DNA of 64,000 nt, taken from the IMG/VR virus record IMGVR_UViG_3300021185_002806; one strand, written 5' to 3'. The position numbers and the translations under genes are program-made. The notes beneath the pieces are model-generated. The model was not told the DNA's origin, did no database searches, and was given only the letters and a program-made list of their open reading frames with translations. Below, one piece after another: positions 4,299 to 48,880 of this stretch. The number at the start of each line of letters is the position of its first letter. The stretch's first letter is position 1. Source of the DNA: a virus.

Positions 4299-4307
4299 AT
4301 GTATATT

Positions 4308-5069
4308 CTACTCTCTCTCAGTATTAATGTCAACTGTTTTCTGCTCTTTCATGTAACAATCGTACACCCTATCAAAATTCTTATCTTCCCATTCATAATT
4401 ATCTGTAAGAAATTTTCTTAACTTTTCTTTATCATATATGTATTCTAATTCAAGAACCTTATCTTCCTTACGTTTTTCTTTAGATATAATATGAGACTCA
4501 TTCACATGTTTACTTAAATTAAATGGTACATCTGACTTATTTTTACGTAATTTATTACTATTAAGAATATCCAAACTCTTTTGTGTATTAATACAAATAA
4601 ACAAAGTTTCATTAATTTTATAATACTTAGATAGTGCCTGATATTCCTTTAGTCCACCAAACTTATCAATTATATAAAATCCATCATGGAATGTCGTAAT
4701 AGATGATTGTAAAGACCATCTGTCAGATGGAACCATATTTAATTTATACGAATGTACATCAATCATATTGATATATTGTTTTATACTACCCGGCTTATGT
4801 ATCTCATTGCAAAATGTTCTGGAAAAATCAGCAATATGATTGCACATCTTAATTGGTCTGATTGCTCCTACATCATCAATATGACAAAAGTCCTCAAACC
4901 ATATATCCTTCGTATTGACATAAATTGAAAATTTGTTATCATCTGTAATTCTTACCAAATCAACATTAGGATCTCCTACTGTTAGTAGAAGCCTAATAAA
5001 GTCACCACATGCACCACCGTGATATGTTATTGCACGATGGGTGCATCCGTTTGGCACTAATGGTATCAC
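4308..5069 (-). CDS. Hypothetical protein, possibly sulfotransferase/P-loop-like
   Basis: 253-aa AT-rich ORF; N-terminal YHGGACGDF loop; function is inference. Confidence 0.65.
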
Positions 5070-7747: not shown

Positions 7748-7776
7748 ATAATAACAAACTAGGACCAGAAAGTCAA
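7748..7776 (-). promoter_or_regulatory. sigma70-like promoter of primase
   Basis: TTGACT-N17-TATTAT with extended -10 TG. Confidence 0.7.
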
Positions 7777-9026: not shown

Positions 9027-9600
9027 GCTGAACCACAATACTTACTGCATATGCAATCGCATGTGCTTTTTTAAAATAGTAAGTACCATCTTCTGGCTTT
9101 TGCCAAACTAATTCAGAAATCTTGGACTTACTTTCGTTGAGCAAGTGCCTCTTAGCGGGTCTAATTACAGCTAGAACTTCTGCTAGTTCCATTATAGTTT
9201 GAGGCTTCATCACTTTTAAAACATCTATATGATTATGAACGTGTGCTAAGTTCTTAACAACATCCGCATGTTGTAACAAATCCCACAAAGGCTCCTTATC
9301 AATAAGACTGTCAAGGTGTGCTTCATCACGTATACCATCATACAAACTATTGTTAAGAAAATCTAACTTAAAATATCCACGTTTTTCAGCTTCTTTATAT
9401 TCTAAACTAGATAACCCAGAAATAGGATCATATGGAATAGGTTGTAGATATACACCACTATTATGCTTTGTCCAGTTATCACCTTTTTTGATACTAGCCG
9501 TTATGTGTCGAAAATGTGTAAGGACTGTGTCACGGTCAATTACATCAATATCTATATCTGTTTCTACCTTATTCATATTTTTAGTATACACTATTTCCAT
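8986..9600 (-). CDS. Miniature DNA polymerase III alpha (family C) catalytic core
   Basis: DIDID, KHNSG, YFKLDFL, IRPA, YFKKAHAIAY in DnaE order; start 9600 or 9576. Confidence 0.75.
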   Translation of the reverse strand: MEIVYTKNMNKVETDIDIDVIDRDTVLTHFRHITASIKKGDNWTKHNSGVYLQPIPYDPISGLSSLEYKEAEKRGYFKLDFLNNSLYDGIRDEAHLDSLIDKEPLWDLLQHADVVKNLAHVHNHIDVLKVMKPQTIMELAEVLAVIRPAKRHLLNESKSKISELVWQKPEDGTYYFKKAHAIAYAVSIVVQLNLFCEQVEQNAS

Positions 9601-9911
9601 ACCATTGTAAAGTATGCCGCATCAGTATCATTTTTAAAATACAATTTTCCTTGATAAGCAACATAAAAATCCTTGCAATGCGTATTGCACCAATCTACTA
9701 ATTGTGTCACGTGTCCAGCACCTTCAACTAATAATTTATCATAATTTATATCATCATGAGACATAGCAGTCCATTCTAAAAACTCTTTGTTTTCAAAATC
9801 ACTATGGAACCTTCTTAAGTTCTTTACTTTATTCTGCAATTTTCTAAGTCTTTCAAGTCGTTTCTTGACATTAGAATGTCGCATAAGTTCGCCATATTCT
9901 GCCATAGGCAT
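9591..9911 (-). CDS. Hypothetical protein
   Basis: 106-aa ORF, AGGAG RBS, consensus promoter upstream. Confidence 0.72.
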   Translation of the reverse strand: MPMAEYGELMRHSNVKKRLERLRKLQNKVKNLRRFHSDFENKEFLEWTAMSHDDINYDKLLVEGAGHVTQLVDWCNTHCKDFYVAYQGKLYFKNDTDAAYFTMVWK

Positions 9912-9931: not shown

Positions 9932-9960
9932 ATTATATACGATTATATACGATTTGTCAA
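9932..9960 (-). promoter_or_regulatory. Consensus sigma70 promoter
   Basis: TTGACA-N17-TATAAT; contains tandem gattatatac x2. Confidence 0.85.
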
Positions 9961-9962
9961 TA

Positions 9963-9970
9963 GATAAATA
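9963..9970 (+). promoter_or_regulatory. Late promoter GATAAATA (divergent)
   Basis: 26 nt before ATG 9997. Confidence 0.6.
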
Positions 9971-9996
9971 CGTATATAATATTATGAAAGTTTACA

Positions 9997-11028
9997 ATGA
10001 AAATTAAGTTATTAGATTTAGATATCGATTTAAATAATGAAATAGACCTTCACTTCTTGCATGAAAAGATATTGTATATAAAATATCTAAATTTACGCAA
10101 TATAGAAAGTAGTGATATTTATACCAAAATATATAGAAAAGAGGTAGAAGAACTATGGCTTGAAAAGGCGCTAACAGGAAGTTGGCATTCAAACTCTAAA
10201 AAAGTATATAGATATGATGATGATAAGTACGAAAATGTGAGTGAAGACTTTACAATGTGCTGGAAGAAAACAGACAAAGACTTCGATAAACTTATTATCA
10301 ATCTAACAAGCTATGCCGGACATGATGGCAGACTTACAAGTTCATTAACAAATGTGAGTGATAAAATATATAACCTCGATACAGATTTATTAATTGTAAA
10401 TGAGGATCCATTACGGTTTCCTGAATCTTTATACCCTAGTGCAATGGTGTTAGGATGTAGTGATAAAAATAATACACAAGAAAAAATGTGTAATCAAATA
10501 AGAGAGTATATCAAAAAGAAATACAGACATGTTATAATATATGCAGATTCAAAACATGCCGGTAGTGCCGTAAGTATAGCATATGAATTAAGTGATATTG
10601 TAACAAATGTACTAACTACAGGCGGACAAACAACATATTCATGGGAGCATTCTCCTTGGATTAAATCATATATGAAATGGCATAATAGACCAGAACATCT
10701 TAAGGACCAAAACTTAATAATGTTAGATGTTGCAATGATGCATTTAGTAAAATGTTGGGGGTTTAAAAAGTTAGATATTAATAATAAGACACTAGACCCA
10801 TATAGATATCTAGGCGGATATCCTAATATAAAAGTAGATTACCTATATGGAAAATATGATACCGATTACAGTGGGTTTACAGATTATGTAAAACAGTTTG
10901 ATTTTGAAAATTTGTGTGTTACAGAAATCGATTATAAGATATCAGACCATCAAAATCATAACATAAGACCGTATGTAGATAGAAAAATACTTAAAGATTT
11001 TATATATAATCTTCCAGACTCTTTATAA
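9997..11028 (+). CDS. Hypothetical protein, possibly alpha/beta-hydrolase-like
   Basis: 343-aa very AT-rich ORF; IIYADSKHAGSAVSIA resembles a nucleophile elbow (weak). Confidence 0.65.
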   Translation: MKIKLLDLDIDLNNEIDLHFLHEKILYIKYLNLRNIESSDIYTKIYRKEVEELWLEKALTGSWHSNSKKVYRYDDDKYENVSEDFTMCWKKTDKDFDKLIINLTSYAGHDGRLTSSLTNVSDKIYNLDTDLLIVNEDPLRFPESLYPSAMVLGCSDKNNTQEKMCNQIREYIKKKYRHVIIYADSKHAGSAVSIAYELSDIVTNVLTTGGQTTYSWEHSPWIKSYMKWHNRPEHLKDQNLIMLDVAMMHLVKCWGFKKLDINNKTLDPYRYLGGYPNIKVDYLYGKYDTDYSGFTDYVKQFDFENLCVTEIDYKISDHQNHNIRPYVDRKILKDFIYNLPDSL

Positions 11029-13822: not shown

Positions 13823-13899
13823 TGGCGGACCCGAGAGGATTCGAACCTCTGACCTCCTGTTTCGTAGACAGGCATTCTATCCAGCTGAACTACGGGTCC
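13823..13899 (-). tRNA. tRNA-Arg(ACG)
   Basis: 77-nt cloverleaf: acceptor GGACCCG/CGGGTCC, anticodon loop CTACGAA, GGTTCGAATCC, A20, encoded CCA. Confidence 0.97.
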
Positions 13900-17457: not shown

Positions 17458-18465
17458 TTATGCCGCTCGTTTCATACAAGTGGTCTCAGCTAAACTCTTC
17501 CATCTGTCTCCTGACTTAGACATATTTCTAAGGTCTGCAATTTTCTGAGCCATTCTCAAAGAAACTTCTCTCAATTTCTTTTGATTTTCAACCATGAAGT
17601 CAATAATTTCAACTTCCTGTTCCTTGCTCAAACCTTTAGTATCAAATAGACCACCGTCTCTCGCAATCTGTTTAATTCTCAAGATTTTATCTCTTGCAGT
17701 GTCCATAGTCAAATCAAGATAGTGACACCTTGAAAGAATTGCTTCCAAGTGGTCTTTGATTTTGTTACCTTTAACTTTATCAAATTTCAAGTTAGTGATA
17801 AAGATAACTGAACCTTTGAATTCGAAAGTATCAGGAACACCTTCCCTTCTTAAGAAATGTGAGTCAGAGTTCCAAGAAATCTTCCTCTTCTTACCGCTAT
17901 CAAGTGCGGCCTTAAGAATGTTTAGTGCATCCTCATTAAAAAGAATACTATCACAATCGTCTAGTACTACGATACTCTTTGGATCAGAGTATTTGTAAAG
18001 TGTAGAGTAAAGACCAATCGCAGACATTGTACCTTTTACAAAAGTATGTCTAAGAGGCTTATCAGCCATCATGTCAAAGATTGAATCCTTTTCAAGTACT
18101 TGCTCAACACCAAATGTTTTACCAACACCAGGAGGTCCTGAAACTACCATACCTCTAACAACACCATCGATTGTTGCCTCGGTCATTTCATCTAAAATAG
18201 AGAAACGTTCAGCAATCCGATTCATCGCCTCTTCATCTGTTTCATTAACAGACGCAACAGAACCTTCAGAAACTTTTACATTTTCTGGGTCAACTTTAAC
18301 CCTAATCTTAGGATTATTAAATTTACTTTCCTCAGCATTAACAGTAATAAACCAAGACCCGTCTTTAGCTTGTTTCAGACTTGAAACAACCGGAAACGCA
18401 CCTTCTACTGATTCATTTCTATATGTACCTTTTTCGATTTGTGCTACTTGCATGTTCTCACTCAT
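17458..18465 (-). CDS. AAA+ ATPase
   Basis: Walker A GPPGVGKT, Walker B VLDDCD, FITN; start MSEN behind AGGAG. Confidence 0.82.
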   Translation of the reverse strand: MSENMQVAQIEKGTYRNESVEGAFPVVSSLKQAKDGSWFITVNAEESKFNNPKIRVKVDPENVKVSEGSVASVNETDEEAMNRIAERFSILDEMTEATIDGVVRGMVVSGPPGVGKTFGVEQVLEKDSIFDMMADKPLRHTFVKGTMSAIGLYSTLYKYSDPKSIVVLDDCDSILFNEDALNILKAALDSGKKRKISWNSDSHFLRREGVPDTFEFKGSVIFITNLKFDKVKGNKIKDHLEAILSRCHYLDLTMDTARDKILRIKQIARDGGLFDTKGLSKEQEVEIIDFMVENQKKLREVSLRMAQKIADLRNMSKSGDRWKSLAETTCMKRAA

Positions 18466-18507
18466 GTATTCACTCCTATGTTGTGTTTTAATTTTCATTA
18501 TGTATAT

Positions 18508-18535
18508 ACTATAACACGATTCGCTATATTGTCAA
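18508..18535 (-). promoter_or_regulatory. Early sigma70 promoter containing GANTC (CGATTCG)
   Basis: TTGACA-N16-TATAGT with TG extension. Confidence 0.72.
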
Positions 18536-18545
18536 GTTTTTGTAC

Positions 18546-19154
18546 CTATTTAATTTCATTATTATTTGCGGCTTCTTTAAGTTGTTTACGGCCGGCTGTC
18601 TGGGAGTCTCCAGATTTCCATGTTTTATATGTATGACAACATGCACATAATGTCTGAAAATTAGAACCATCAGTTGGTTCATTATATGGATTGCCGTCCA
18701 TATGGTCTACTTGTAACATCGGTTGAGGGAATCCATAATCTCTTAACCATTCTATTGATTTAGGCAATGGCGGGTCATAATATATATTGGTGGTGCATTT
18801 AAATCCCAAACGACCATCTATATTTTCACAGTAAGGTTTTCGCCATTGTAAATGATAAGGGGTGCCGCCATGCTGTTCACAGTATTCAGAAAACTTAAGT
18901 TCTCCTTCGTGATTTGTTCCTAACAATGTTGCTTTTTTTCTACAATTCTTAATTGTACATGTCGGATATTGGCGCTTTGTTAAATTCGATGATAAATTTT
19001 GAAAATTCTTTCGTCTTAAATTGTGACACTTTCCGCAGTATTTTCGCCAAACAGGCTTGTCTGCTGATGCCGTATTATGTGCTAAATCTTCACATCCTTC
19101 TGTTTGACATACCGGTCGTGGTACAGAATAATCATTCCTTTGGGCTTTAGCCAT
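18546..19154 (-). CDS. HNH endonuclease with Cys/His-rich repeats
   Basis: LQVDHMDGN...NFQTLCACCH; start MAKA behind GGAGG. Confidence 0.75.
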   Translation of the reverse strand: MAKAQRNDYSVPRPVCQTEGCEDLAHNTASADKPVWRKYCGKCHNLRRKNFQNLSSNLTKRQYPTCTIKNCRKKATLLGTNHEGELKFSEYCEQHGGTPYHLQWRKPYCENIDGRLGFKCTTNIYYDPPLPKSIEWLRDYGFPQPMLQVDHMDGNPYNEPTDGSNFQTLCACCHTYKTWKSGDSQTAGRKQLKEAANNNEIK

Positions 19155-19155
19155 A

Positions 19156-19413
19156 TCATAACCTCCGTTCAATCTCTTCCAGTTGTTTAAGATGTTTATT
19201 ATGCTTATCACGTATTAGTACATACTTGTCCCAAGTTGCATAATTATGACTTTCCGGTCCATGCATACTATTACGCATTCCAGCACTAGATTTTGCCAAT
19301 GCTTCACCAAATGGCCACCACTCTAATATTTCTTTTGTATCTTCCTTATATACCAAATATACCGGTATATTTTTAGAAATAGCATCTTCCAGTGTGTTGT
19401 TTTTCAAATTCAT
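19156..19413 (-). CDS. Hypothetical protein
   Basis: 85-aa ORF with GAGG RBS. Confidence 0.68.
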   Translation of the reverse strand: MNLKNNTLEDAISKNIPVYLVYKEDTKEILEWWPFGEALAKSSAGMRNSMHGPESHNYATWDKYVLIRDKHNKHLKQLEEIERRL

Positions 19414-19416
19414 TCT

Positions 19417-19584
19417 TTATTCCTCAAACTTGTCTACAATCTGTACAGTTTCTTCATTCACTGCTGTTTCGATTACATATTCTACACCATCAAGTTTTTG
19501 AGAGTGAAAATATGCTTTTGCGTCTTTCCACTCGGAGCAATATGCCACAACTTTATTAGTGCCTTTAATTTTTACAGTATACAA
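19417..19584 (-). CDS. Small hypothetical protein (55 aa, TTG start)
   Basis: Manually translated MYTVKIKGTNKVVAYCSEWKDAKAY...KFEE*; fills the gap exactly. Confidence 0.55.
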   Translation of the reverse strand: MYTVKIKGTNKVVAYCSEWKDAKAYFHSQKLDGVEYVIETAVNEETVQIVDKFEE

Positions 19585-19586
19585 TA

Positions 19587-20012
19587 TTATGCCGCCTTTT
19601 TAATATAAGGTTTATCCCATTTACCGACATTGATGTTTACATAAAATGCGGTATCAAAATAATCAATCATTGCATCTGAGTTGTCATAATATGCTCGTCC
19701 GCCTTCGGCTTTAGCAGGAGCAGTATGACAAATTTCTTTGATATCGTCAAATAACGATTCATATTTCCCATACATATGTGTGTGATAATGATTAATCTGT
19801 GCATGACCAGTGAACGGATAAAACTTATCGTTGTTATAACGGTCAGTATGACCCATGTCCTTATCACCATAAAAGTCCATTACGCCTTCCATAATTGAAA
19901 CGCTAATGCCTGTATAATGGTCACGTGTTACTGAGAACTTGATGTTTTTACCGAACTTCTCTTTGAGTGCTTTACGAACTTCTTTTACTTCGTTAGTTGA
20001 AATATAAGCCAT
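19587..20012 (-). CDS. LPD29-like early protein
   Basis: MAYIST.EVKEVRKALKEKF...KFSV...Y.DNSDAMIDYFD..FY pattern. Confidence 0.58.
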   Translation of the reverse strand: MAYISTNEVKEVRKALKEKFGKNIKFSVTRDHYTGISVSIMEGVMDFYGDKDMGHTDRYNNDKFYPFTGHAQINHYHTHMYGKYESLFDDIKEICHTAPAKAEGGRAYYDNSDAMIDYFDTAFYVNINVGKWDKPYIKKAA

Positions 20013-20045
20013 ATTGTTTACCCTCTTTCTATTGATTATGTAAAC

Positions 20046-20073
20046 ATTATAGCATGATTCGTGATTCTGTCAA
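20046..20073 (-). promoter_or_regulatory. Early sigma70 promoter containing two GANTC sites
   Basis: TTGACA-N16-TATAAT with TG extension; TGATTCG at 20055-20061. Confidence 0.78.
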
Positions 20074-20086
20074 GTTTTTGGGTATT

Positions 20087-20338: not shown

Positions 20339-20641
20339 TTACCCAAACACTTTTTCGTCTGCTAAGGCTCTGTAACCAGCGGCTACAACCCTTCTTAGGG
20401 GAGCTCCTAGTCTGTATACAGTTTTACCATGTTTGCTTTTATTAGCATATACGGCGTAACCTTTCATTCTCAAAGCACTGATAGTTGCTCTCGGATTTGC
20501 AACTCCATACCTATTTTTCATAGTAGCTTCTGTCAATGCTTCTCCGTCTTTTAATGCATTGATTATTTTCTCTTGTTTTGATGTTTTCATCATTTCTCCT
20601 TTAGGTGTTAGTGTATCTTTACGGTTTAACCAATTAAACAT
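20339..20641 (-). CDS. Winged helix-turn-helix protein
   Basis: IINALKDGEALT...YGVANPRATISALRMKGY; in-frame starts at 20641 and 20593/20590, both with a strong RBS. Confidence 0.7.
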   Translation of the reverse strand: MFNWLNRKDTLTPKGEMMKTSKQEKIINALKDGEALTEATMKNRYGVANPRATISALRMKGYAVYANKSKHGKTVYRLGAPLRRVVAAGYRALADEKVFG

Positions 20642-20666
20642 AAAGTACCTCCTTTTCTTATGGATT

Positions 20667-20695
20667 AGAATATCATAAGTTGCATAGTATGTCAA
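20667..20695 (-). promoter_or_regulatory. sigma70-like promoter
   Basis: TTGACA-N17-TATTCT with TG extension. Confidence 0.72.
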
Positions 20696-46835: not shown

Positions 46836-48110
46836 TCAAAATACCTTGAGAAGCAGGGTATGTTCATTAATTCTGCCATTCATCTTTGTAGGGACACTCT
46901 TAATTGCTTCAAATTGCTTGTTAAGAGAACGTTTATTGATATCTTTAAATATCTTTAATTGCTCTTGAGGCTTACGTAGGGTCTTCTGTACACTAGTTTC
47001 CTCGTTAAATCGTATCATGGTAGTACCTTTAACACTAAGGCCGCTTCCTTCACGTTTTTGGTTCATTGGATCTACATTACTCGTATGATATATACCTAGC
47101 TTACGTGATTTTGTATTATAAAGAACTAGTATATTACTCCCAACTATCTCAATAGGATTAATACTAACTAATCCAGTATCAACATGTTCTTTCATAAACT
47201 TCATTTTAGATACAAGTTTTTCAGAACTAACAGGTTTCTTTTTACGAGGCTTTCGGTCAAATTTTGCATTAGCAATTACCATATCACAAGCCTGTACAAT
47301 ACTCTTATACATTTCGTACATTGCTTTAATTTCAGACTTTTCTAAATGAGAATAGCCTTCAATAAGTTGTTCGTGCCAATCAAGTTCCTTTTCAGACATT
47401 CCTTTTGTCTTAGGAGGATTAATTAGTTCATCATACTCATTAAAATTTGCAACGTACAACTCCCTAATAACTTTAGCGTGATTGGCTTTTGCTTCCTGCT
47501 TACGCAAAATATTAATAGGCTTGAAATTTTTCAATGAGTTTGTATCCATATCAAATTCATCAATAAAGTCTTCTAATTCATCTGTCATAGACAATGCTTT
47601 TAAACGTAGAAGTTCTTGTATAGAAGGACGATATTTATTTTTCTTTTGTTCTTCTTTTTCTACTTCTTCTTTTGCCTCACGCATTTCTTTTCCACGTGCG
47701 ATTGCAGTAGTAACTTGTTTGCGAATAAATTCACTAATTGGAGTTATGTGTCCGCCAGTGCCCGGAAGAGTTTGCCAGTAATCATCTTCCTTTTGATTAA
47801 AGTCAGGCATACCATCCAGTAGTAACCTTGAACATATTGCACATGTTACACTCAATGACGATTCTGGTGGGATCTTTGCTAACTTTATTTCTTCGTTTGT
47901 ATATCCGTTCTTTCCCATCCATGAAAATATGTATGCATATAAATCTTTTGGTTGATAATTTTCATAGTAGAAACTACGGGCATGTTCTTTCTTACGATGA
48001 TATTCTGCTCCGGACAAAGTTTCCCAACCATCCCATTTCGGTGATTCTAGTTTTGCTCCTCGTTTGGATGGGGCTCTCTTTATTGCTTTTTTCTTTTTCG
48101 CCAATGCCAT
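46836..48110 (-). CDS. Hypothetical protein of a type seen in T4-like phages
   Basis: 424 aa; C-terminal YNTKSRKLG...VKGTT...KTLRKP...NGRIN. Confidence 0.75.
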   Translation of the reverse strand: MALAKKKKAIKRAPSKRGAKLESPKWDGWETLSGAEYHRKKEHARSFYYENYQPKDLYAYIFSWMGKNGYTNEEIKLAKIPPESSLSVTCAICSRLLLDGMPDFNQKEDDYWQTLPGTGGHITPISEFIRKQVTTAIARGKEMREAKEEVEKEEQKKNKYRPSIQELLRLKALSMTDELEDFIDEFDMDTNSLKNFKPINILRKQEAKANHAKVIRELYVANFNEYDELINPPKTKGMSEKELDWHEQLIEGYSHLEKSEIKAMYEMYKSIVQACDMVIANAKFDRKPRKKKPVSSEKLVSKMKFMKEHVDTGLVSINPIEIVGSNILVLYNTKSRKLGIYHTSNVDPMNQKREGSGLSVKGTTMIRFNEETSVQKTLRKPQEQLKIFKDINKRSLNKQFEAIKSVPTKMNGRINEHTLLLKVF

Positions 48111-48181
48111 TTAATTTTCGCTCCGTGATAATTCGAATCATTTAATCTCAGTTTCTATTTAACTACAAATAGTGTTTTTTG

Positions 48182-48880
48182 TCAAGTTTTAAGTCTATCC
48201 GTGTTATTATCTAACAAATTAGCATCCTCAAGTACATCATTGCGTAGTGCGTTTATAAGCAATGCACTTCTATATAAATTAGATTTATTAGGCATTGTAC
48301 TATGCAATGTTCTACCATCATACATTAGCACATCACCTGCTTTTGCTAAAAATTGGTGACCTTCATTAACTAATCTATCATTGTAATGCTCTTGGTTGTC
48401 CTGAATATCTTTATAATATATCTTTTCCAAATGCGAACCAGGAAGATACGCAGTGCCGCCATTCTCTAAAGTGAAATCATTAAGAGGTATAATTATTTGT
48501 ACACCCAATGTAGCATCTACTTTGGCATATTTTTCAAATCGATAAGGCGTATCTATGTGTGCATAAATTTTACTTGATTTAGGTGCAGTGGTAATACAGT
48601 CAACCGCATGTATATTCCACTCCTTGGATCCAAATAACGTATCAATATACTTGTTTAATGGTACAACAACTGGTAACCACATTTCTCTAGGAGGTGCTTT
48701 TGTCCACCAAACATCATATGTACGTTTTCCGTCATGTTCATTATAGTAAATACCGTCTGATCCATTGCCTCTGTGTGCATTATCAGGGTTCATTGCCCAT
48801 AATCTAAATTGTTCTATTGCAATTCTAGGTAAATAATCACGTGCAATAATATATCCTGCACTAGTTAATCGGTCATCCAT
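48182..48880 (-). CDS. PhyH-family Fe(II)/2OG dioxygenase
   Basis: AHID, ENGGT, GDVLMYDGRTLHST...RSA. Confidence 0.82.
   Translation of the reverse strand: MDDRLTSAGYIIARDYLPRIAIEQFRLWAMNPDNAHRGNGSDGIYYNEHDGKRTYDVWWTKAPPREMWLPVVVPLNKYIDTLFGSKEWNIHAVDCITTAPKSSKIYAHIDTPYRFEKYAKVDATLGVQIIIPLNDFTLENGGTAYLPGSHLEKIYYKDIQDNQEHYNDRLVNEGHQFLAKAGDVLMYDGRTLHSTMPNKSNLYRSALLINALRNDVLEDANLLDNNTDRLKT

Follow-up and report, generated by a model that had tools for sequence, protein, structure and literature searches.

The stretch of viral DNA analysed here (IMG/VR record IMGVR_UViG_3300021185_002806; 64,000 nucleotides, hereafter the window) carries, in the region of positions 18,508 to 20,073, two predicted early promoters, P1 and P2, in each of which a GANTC-containing word lies at one and the same place between the −35 and −10 hexamers; and the question that this locus raises is what reads that word. 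An earlier note on this DNA had proposed GcrA, the sigma70-binding activator of the alphaproteobacterial cell cycle, whose preferred sites are those methylated by CcrM. Judged from its conservation, the word—hereafter the box, (C/A/T)GA(A/T)TC(G/A), centred at −19/−20—is a selected, position-fixed early-promoter element; and that a GcrA-type cofactor, carried by the sigma70 holoenzyme of the host and favouring methylated DNA, lands on this element is a proposition to which we give about even chances.

Architecture of P1, P2, and a third promoter

The sequences of P1 and P2 stand letter for letter as first read, on the minus strand and with 16-bp spacers. Each comprises an A-rich upstream block, a perfect −35, the 16-bp spacer, a TGn extended −10 and a near-consensus −10 hexamer, with CGAATC occupying spacer positions 7-12 and the TGn following directly (Table 1). 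The public runs were kept as contigs, so that the transcription starts, near 18501 for P1 and near 20039 for P2, are predicted; the box is centred at −19 if the start is the A seven bases past the −10 hexamer and at −20 if it is one base later. Precisely three copies of the anchor AAAACTTGACA are present in the window (18530-18540, 20068-20078 and 48180-48190), each of them on the minus strand. At the third of these sites the TGATTCG that the earlier note had reported nearby is indeed present, downstream of the promoter, in the leader (coding strand, 48140-48134; centre about +14), and is kept in two related genomes, G001 and G002, despite differing flanks, the G001 copy being at +15. The window's other intergenic sigma70-like promoters, first described as uniformly having 17-bp spacers, mostly do (starts 9960, 28651, 48935, 7776 and 4333), with one spacer of 18 bp (37512) and one of 15 bp (9954, plus strand); none of these spacers contains GANTC.

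The positional identity of the two boxes had been taken as unlikely by chance, on the estimate that the heptamer occurs once per 3-4 kb. Strict YGAKTCG is in fact found 10 times in the 64 kb, or about once per 6.4 kb (the looser YGAKTCK at 29 sites), and P1 and P2 prove to be diverged copies of one cassette family and not independent promoters, which relationship makes conservation, rather than chance co-occurrence, the meaningful statistic.

Conservation of the box

We obtained an unbiased set of promoters by anchoring only on AAAACTTGACA in the window and in five related records (G001-G005; about 1 Mb), among which G001—342,607 bp long in IMG/VR, bearing terminal repeats and classed as complete—is 78-89% identical to the window over 63 kb, an identity also summarised as 84-88%. 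The set contained 43 unique sites, 34 with a 16-bp spacer and a TAnnnT hexamer, and GANTC occupied spacer positions 8-12 in 30 of those 34. The box heptamers were CGAATCG (13), AGAATCA (5), AGAATCG (4), CGATTCG (4), CGAATCA (3) and TGATTCG (1), the central base being A or T in all 30.

Divergence was measured in 15 orthologous promoter pairs, defined by the same downstream gene in different genomes. Per site, it amounted to 0.34 at spacer positions 1-6, 0.27 in the 5′ flank of the box, 0.03 in the GA, 0.27 at the central base, 0.07 in the TC and 0.20 in the 3′ flank, with 0 for the TG of the extended −10 and 0.08 for the −10 hexamer. The GA and the TC thus diverge some 10 times less than the adjacent spacer: they are constrained like the −10 hexamer, while the central base is free to be A or T and the neighbours drift. 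The main box of P2 illustrates this freedom, since its orthologues on the coding strand read TGATTCG in G001 and CGATTCG in G002, the central base having flipped. Simple hitch-hiking in a homogenised cassette would not predict a GA..TC that stays fixed amid drifting neighbours. Promoter duplication, with which the earlier note had allowed for the identical positions, is to that extent half of an explanation: the wider cassette family agrees with it, and the fixed GA..TC is left unexplained.

Spread of the promoter cassette

Searched with a pattern of 25 specified bases, those common to P1 and P2, IMG/VR gave 59 matching stretches, in which as many as 4 copies lay within 2 kb. The 54 unique copies have about 48 bp in common, consisting of the AAAAC block, the −35, the box, TGn, TATAnT and ATATACATAAT, the last being the conserved first dozen transcribed bases; the cassette consensus was drawn from 91 unique copies. 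The cassette, of which P1 and P2 are two copies, is a strong early promoter of the host (sigma70) type and is found throughout a family of marine jumbo phages of about 340 kb. The initial transcribed block itself (18495-18507 and 20033-20045; ATATACATAAT-like) is conserved across copies nearly as well as the promoter elements, and could have a role in promoter escape, in RNA processing or as a translational signal.

Among the 59 stretches, 19 belong to phages of about 31 kb which have at most 1% of their DNA in common with G001, that is, the cassettes alone, so that one regulatory cassette is common to two unrelated phage lineages. The IMG/VR records G020, G008, G031 and G029 belong to this smaller group. 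A BLAST search of the cassette against cultured phages gave chance matches only, to Streptococcus phages at E of about 0.4.

A cassette so repeated, with its roughly 48 nearly identical base pairs bordering indels such as an optional HNH gene, might need no separate reader at all: it could be homogenised by recombination in the manner of the promoter-early stem-loop (PeSL) elements, for which such shuffling is documented (PMC2839356, PMC4122927), or its spacer could simply tune the contacts of RNA polymerase at a length of 16 bp. A hairpin with a T-run precedes 24 of 136 cassette copies in relatives, as it does in PeSLs, although the DNA preceding P1, P2 and the third site forms no stable hairpin (−2.0 to −2.8 kcal/mol). 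Contigs from public runs, moreover, branch at the edges of the P1 cassette (18487-18499 and 18539-18540), as is to be expected of a repeat; the contig ends at P1 and P2 likewise reflect the repetition of the cassette, and a reading of them as RNA ends was rejected. Homogenisation, however, would conserve every spacer position, whereas here positions 1-7, 10, 13 and 16 vary and GA, TC and TG are constant; and the box is also found outside the cassette, in leaders. We know of no contact of sigma70 or of the core enzyme that specifies GA..TC at −21 to −17, which further weakens an explanation that we regard as improbable.

Correspondence of the box with GcrA sites

The word bound by GcrA was given by Haakonsen et al. 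as TGATTCG, or more broadly YGAKTCK, the sites of the regulon being "narrowly centred around −20" or at +2 to +30, and leaving the −10 itself clear (PMC4647560). Wu et al. placed GcrA boxes at −20 ± 1, −30 ± 2, or +5 to +30, and solved the complex on PcsM, in which promoter Gm6AATC lies at −22..−18 (PMC9976885); all seven bases of TGATTCG are contacted by GcrA (PMC5887438). P1 and P2 have the sigma70-type −35 and −10 elements of GcrA-dependent promoters, and on the predicted starts their boxes, at −19/−20, and that of the third site, at about +14, fall within the published classes of −20 ± 1 and +5..+30. A downstream box arrangement like that of the third promoter recurs at a 17-bp-spacer promoter of the small phage G020. 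In G001, 14 of the 55 strict YGAKTCG words lie within 45 nt of a predicted start (31 promoter anchors), and of these 14, 12 are exactly at −19, one at +6 and one at +15.

The word itself corresponds as well. On one strand or the other, all 6 heptamer variants and all 30 boxes of the unbiased set conform to YGAKTCK, and in G001 so do 17 of 17 promoter boxes versus 24% of the 598 non-promoter GANTC sites. The commonest top-strand box word, GAATC, is that of PcsM. The 5′ flank is C or A with a central A and C or T with a central T, which change of flank upon the flip of the central base is just how an asymmetric word must behave when it is read on the opposite strand. P2 has, in addition, a second box at about −26, which position belongs to neither published class, −30 ± 2 included; a second site like this one is present in some G001 promoters.

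A different protein could occupy the box as its operator, be it a phage-encoded or virion-injected regulator by which early promoters are boosted or shut off, or a factor of a non-alphaproteobacterial host, the likeness to GcrA sites then being coincidental. The core CGA-N-TCG is palindromic, extending in some copies to CACGA-A-TCGTG, as in dimeric operators; the box is so placed that a protein on it would obstruct or contact RNA polymerase; next to P2 lies the gene of a small winged-helix protein (20339-20695); and the host is only putatively alphaproteobacterial, with core genes like those of gammaproteobacterial phages. Yet the symmetry beyond the heptamer is not conserved, spacer positions 1-6 diverging at 0.34 per site, and the flanks vary only within YGAKTCK, where coincidence would have about one quarter of the heptamers fit instead of six of six. 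The box word, furthermore, also occurs at +14/+15 in promoters that lack a spacer box, which better suits the two position classes of GcrA, and its presence in two unrelated phage lineages argues for a host factor. We consider such an operator unlikely, if marginally less so than a cassette without a reader. The boxes of CRP, LexA, Fur and NrdR and alternative sigma motifs were compared by eye and dropped.

Nor do we attach more than a very slight probability to a box tied to restriction-modification, for example as a target or decoy retained for a system that is specific for GANTC. Over the whole genome this word is mildly depleted, with 615 sites observed in G001 versus 931 expected (observed/expected ratio, O/E, 0.66), and the family strongly avoids other palindromes (GATC 0.25, CGCG 0.27, GCWGC 0); but an avoidance that leaves 615 sites in place is weak, and both the fixed promoter position and the GcrA-type flanks would be left without a reason.

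As a landing site for GcrA, the box would work as follows. The virion DNA, coming from a SAR11-like alphaproteobacterial host, would be methylated at GAWTC by the CcrM of that host; a GcrA-type cofactor, riding on the host sigma70 holoenzyme and preferring N6-adenine-methylated GANTC, would land on the box; and after injection the complex of GcrA and RNA polymerase would load preferentially on the boxed early promoters. The slightly short 16-bp spacer, which is specific to the boxed class, may be what makes these promoters responsive to the cofactor. Of the original proposal that early transcription is wired to GcrA, the word, the position and the selection fit, whereas methylation and GcrA dependence are what we infer, and we hold the whole to be as probable as its negation.

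The phage and its host

The window has a GC content of 35%, with nearly every gene on the minus strand; among the products of these genes are a ribonucleotide reductase (RNR), a UvsW-type helicase, a tail sheath and a large terminase. The closest cultured relatives of its proteins are jumbo myoviruses, namely PA5oct (40-55%) and Rak2-like phages, and the large terminase is about 50% identical to those of Agrobacterium phage Atu_ph07 and Sinorhizobium phage Phosso. Near-identical DNA occurs in the public runs of 17 studies, including many DNA and RNA runs from seawater; the index of public assemblies lists one jumbo-phage protein in 372 blocks, and an exact-protein look-up returned metagenome contigs only. 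The carrier of P1 and P2 is an uncultured, cosmopolitan marine jumbo phage.

That its host is an alphaproteobacterium we consider probable, and the sharing of the cassette with relatives of HTVC111P-type pelagiphages, together with a common absence of GCWGC, suggests SAR11 as the best guess. In the small phage G020 (31,352 bp; classed as complete) the structural module is akin to those of the cultured Pelagibacter phages HTVC111P, 026P, 112P and 202P (31.6-32.5 kb), with 48% identity in the terminase (TerL), 45% in the portal and 60% in the capsid, in addition to the scaffold and connector proteins; the next cultured matches of these structural proteins drop to about 23%. When two unrelated lineages have one host-type early-promoter cassette, a common host is the simplest explanation. 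GCWGC (GCAGC/GCTGC), for its part, is absent from the window (about 42-49 expected), from G001 (0 versus about 205) and from about 930 kb of the jumbo family, and likewise from G020, G031, HTVC111P and HTVC026P (0 versus 12-33), in contrast to its normal frequency in the four non-SAR11 jumbo phages (of Vibrio, Pseudomonas, Agrobacterium and Sinorhizobium) as well as in HTVC010P and HTVC008M. This pattern suggests a nuclease with GCWGC specificity, be it one of the host population or one of the phages. GCSGC is over-represented in the jumbo family and in G020 and G031. In G001, as in the window, other palindromes are also scarce, with avoidance that is strong for GATC (O/E 0.25) and CGCG (0.27) and moderate for GCGC, AGCT and GGCC (about 0.5), and with a similar profile in HTVC008M.

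Other indications of the host were set aside. A cyanophage is unlikely, psbA being absent. The homologues of the Fe-S assembly protein and of the DUF6552 protein are metagenomic or host-uninformative only, and the 36 open reading frames (ORFs) shared with HTVC008M, mostly core genes or RNR at no more than 65% identity, do not identify the host. The leaderless late-promoter layout was not used as a link to SAR11, since it applies to 12 genes in HTVC008M (TAAATA 5 nt before the ATG) versus 4 in G001; nor was the depletion of GAWTC versus GASTC as a SAR11 signature, whose outcome varies with the background model.

Writer, reader, and the evidence against a GcrA-type cofactor

SAR11 has a CcrM that is partly GAWTC-specific (PMC3973325, PMC8919816), and in cultured SAR11 methylation of the GANTC sites is nearly complete (PMC3973325, PMC8919816, PMC9516812). 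In G001 the density of GANTC is 1.7 times higher outside ORFs than within, which is the direction reported for CcrM genomes (PMC3973325), the effect in G001 being weak. The alphaproteobacterial phages analysed differ in their use of the word: YGAKTCG versus its reversed control numbered 0 versus 18 in HTVC008M, 138 versus 64 in Atu_ph07, and 268 versus 194 in Phosso, the promoters of which last phage have a conserved spacer word of their own, TTCCTnTGTTA.

Several observations weigh against GcrA as the reader. The earlier note had suggested looking for phage-borne gcrA and ccrM, and the related records searched yielded neither: for gcrA (PF07750) there was no match among 52 related records, of which G001-G005 were searched at a threshold of E ≤ 10 and the other 47 at E ≤ 0.01, a regular-expression search for the GcrA-like Cys/His sigma-binding motif returned one spurious match only, and the CcrM family (PF01555) produced in G001-G005 only 16-bit matches, all in a single radical-SAM/SPASM protein ORF. 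Both the writer and the reader would consequently have to be supplied by the host, and the presence of GcrA in SAR11 is known to us from the literature only (PMC2877005, PMC7987155). The SAR11 myophage HTVC008M has GANTC nearly purged (43 sites in 147 kb), whereas G001 is only mildly depleted. A perfect −35 combined with an extended −10 should make for a strong promoter without any activator; and because the copies of the cassette are paralogues, copy counts overstate their independence.

The host assignment meets with objections of its own. No box promoter was found in six cultured alphaproteobacterial phages, namely HTVC008M, HTVC010P, HTVC111P and HTVC026P of SAR11, Atu_ph07, and Phosso. 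The nearest cultured relatives of the jumbo-phage core genes infect Pseudomonas, enterobacteria and Rhizobiales, and these genes resemble those of gammaproteobacterial phages at least equally. A cassette scan of bacterial genome bins gave a single match, PBJR01000026.1, in the metagenome-assembled genome 'Flavobacteriaceae bacterium SP29'; this contig of 29.8 kb is a jumbo-family fragment, 76-91% identical to G001 at 167-172 kb, and the sole contig of that bin with the promoter. Since the phage has TTGACA/TATAAT promoters and common Shine-Dalgarno sites, its placement among the Flavobacteriaceae is probably a misbinning. The alphaproteobacterial host of the original proposal is favoured by the cassette sharing and the GCWGC absence, which fit SAR11, while the core genes and the Flavobacteriaceae bin point elsewhere.

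Comparison with known systems

The closest likeness is to the GcrA/CcrM promoters of Caulobacter crescentus such as PcsM and PmipZ (PMC4647560, PMC5887438, PMC9976885), which are likewise of the sigma70 type with one GANTC in YGAKTCK flanks, located in the −35/−10 spacer at −20 ± 1 or in the leader at +5..+30 and never over the −10. Unlike those, the present promoters belong to phage genomes, in which they form part of a recurring cassette; their −35 is perfect, their −10 extended and the central base only A or T, and as GcrA-dependent promoters they are putative. The T4-type PeSL cassettes (PMC2839356, PMC4122927) resemble ours in being conserved early promoters repeated before many small genes and at indel borders, with a terminator hairpin preceding the promoter in part of the copies; they differ in that such a hairpin is missing before P1, P2 and the third site, and that the present cassette spans two unrelated phage lineages and holds a selected, non-sigma70 word in its spacer. 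Control through CtrA boxes in alphaproteobacterial phages (PMC9437464) offers a precedent for wiring phage promoters to a host cell-cycle regulator, though with another regulator and another word (TTAA-N7-TTAA) and with a control that was shown experimentally (PMC9437464). SAR11 lacks CtrA (PMC2877005), and a survey of alphaproteobacterial phages found positional signals for CtrA sites and none for GcrA sites (PMC9437464). Our literature search found no paper that combined GANTC, phage and early promoter.

A further and more speculative proposal is that of a methylation timer, in which replication switches early transcription off and two SAR11 phage lineages share the device by way of a mobile cassette. 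Under this scheme the GcrA-sigma70 holoenzyme of the host would recognise the injected, fully methylated DNA at its boxed early promoters; the new phage DNA would then be hemimethylated or unmethylated, the host CcrM being limiting, and activation would be lost. We doubt that this timer operates, and rate it as unlikely. The Dam-sensitive promoters of Mu mom, P1 cre and IS10 pIN provide a parallel, since there an adenine-methylation site in the promoter couples transcription to the state of replication or methylation, as is proposed here; they differ in that their methylation system is Dam acting on GATC, in Gammaproteobacteria, and in that no reader protein bound to sigma takes part.

Genes and other features of the window

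The features bearing on P1 and P2 are collected in Table 1. For the ATPase gene driven by P1 the likely start is the ATG at 18465, which is preceded by AGGAG; in the longest ORF the first in-frame ATG is at 18498, within the conserved P1 cassette. The HNH ORF is optional cargo: the segment 18543-19207 is precisely missing from the relative L050, and one RNA-run contig (n = 1) skips 18573-19087, a part of that ORF.

Table 1. Positions of the promoter cassettes, their boxes and the adjoining genes in the window.
Feature	Positions	Strand	Details
P1 early-promoter cassette	18493..18540	−	AAAAC 18536-18540; −35 TTGACA 18530-18535; 16-bp spacer
P1 cassette, downstream half		−	TG 18515-18516; −10 TATAGT 18508-18513; conserved initial transcribed block 18495-18507
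P1 box	18517..18523	−	coding strand CGAATCG, plus strand CGATTCG; centre −19/−20
P2 early-promoter cassette	20033..20078	−	AAAAC 20074-20078; −35 TTGACA 20068-20073; 16-bp spacer
P2 cassette, downstream half		−	TG 20053-20054; −10 TATAAT 20046-20051; conserved block 20033-20045
P2 main box	20055..20061	−	coding strand CGAATCA, equal to plus-strand TGATTCG (best GcrA word); centre −19/−20
P2 second box	20062..20068	−	GAATC at spacer positions 1-5; plus strand TGATTCT; centre about −26
Third AAAAC-TTGACA promoter	48134..48190	−	48180-48190; no spacer box; upstream of gene 46836-48110
AAA-type ATPase (phrog_1250), gene driven by P1	17458..18465	−	
Genes driven by P2	19156..20012	−	LPD29-domain protein 19587-20012; small ORFs 19417-19584 and 19156-19413
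HNH endonuclease ORF, optional	18546..19211	−	Pfam HNH; end 5 nt short of the P1 cassette

Elsewhere in the window, a tRNA-Arg (ACG) gene is located at 13823-13899 on the minus strand. Two sigma70-like promoters of that strand, at 4305-4333 and 7748-7776, have the end of their −10 hexamer 6 nt from the ATG of the next gene, which spacing suggests that their messages are leaderless. In the interval 9932-9980, between the genes 9591-9911 and 9997-11028, two consensus promoters diverge back to back, the one of the minus strand being TTGACA-17-TATAAT and that of the plus strand TTGTCA-15-TATAAT.

Implications

Were the GcrA reading to fail, a strongly conserved promoter element would still have to be explained. 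As it stands, the correspondence in word and geometry suggests that the boxed cassettes may be GcrA-type promoters in a phage, and that through them this phage may couple the onset of its transcription to DNA methylation by a SAR11-like host; GcrA boxes are otherwise known only from the chromosomal cell-cycle promoters of Caulobacter and its relatives. If this is true, phages would exploit the epigenetic reader of their host to start infection, the GcrA box would serve as a sequence marker for the alphaproteobacterial hosts of uncultured phages, and the cassette would offer a simple means of testing GcrA in vitro in a setting other than Caulobacter; and if the timer were also true, the device would be one shared among phages in SAR11, the most abundant marine heterotroph.

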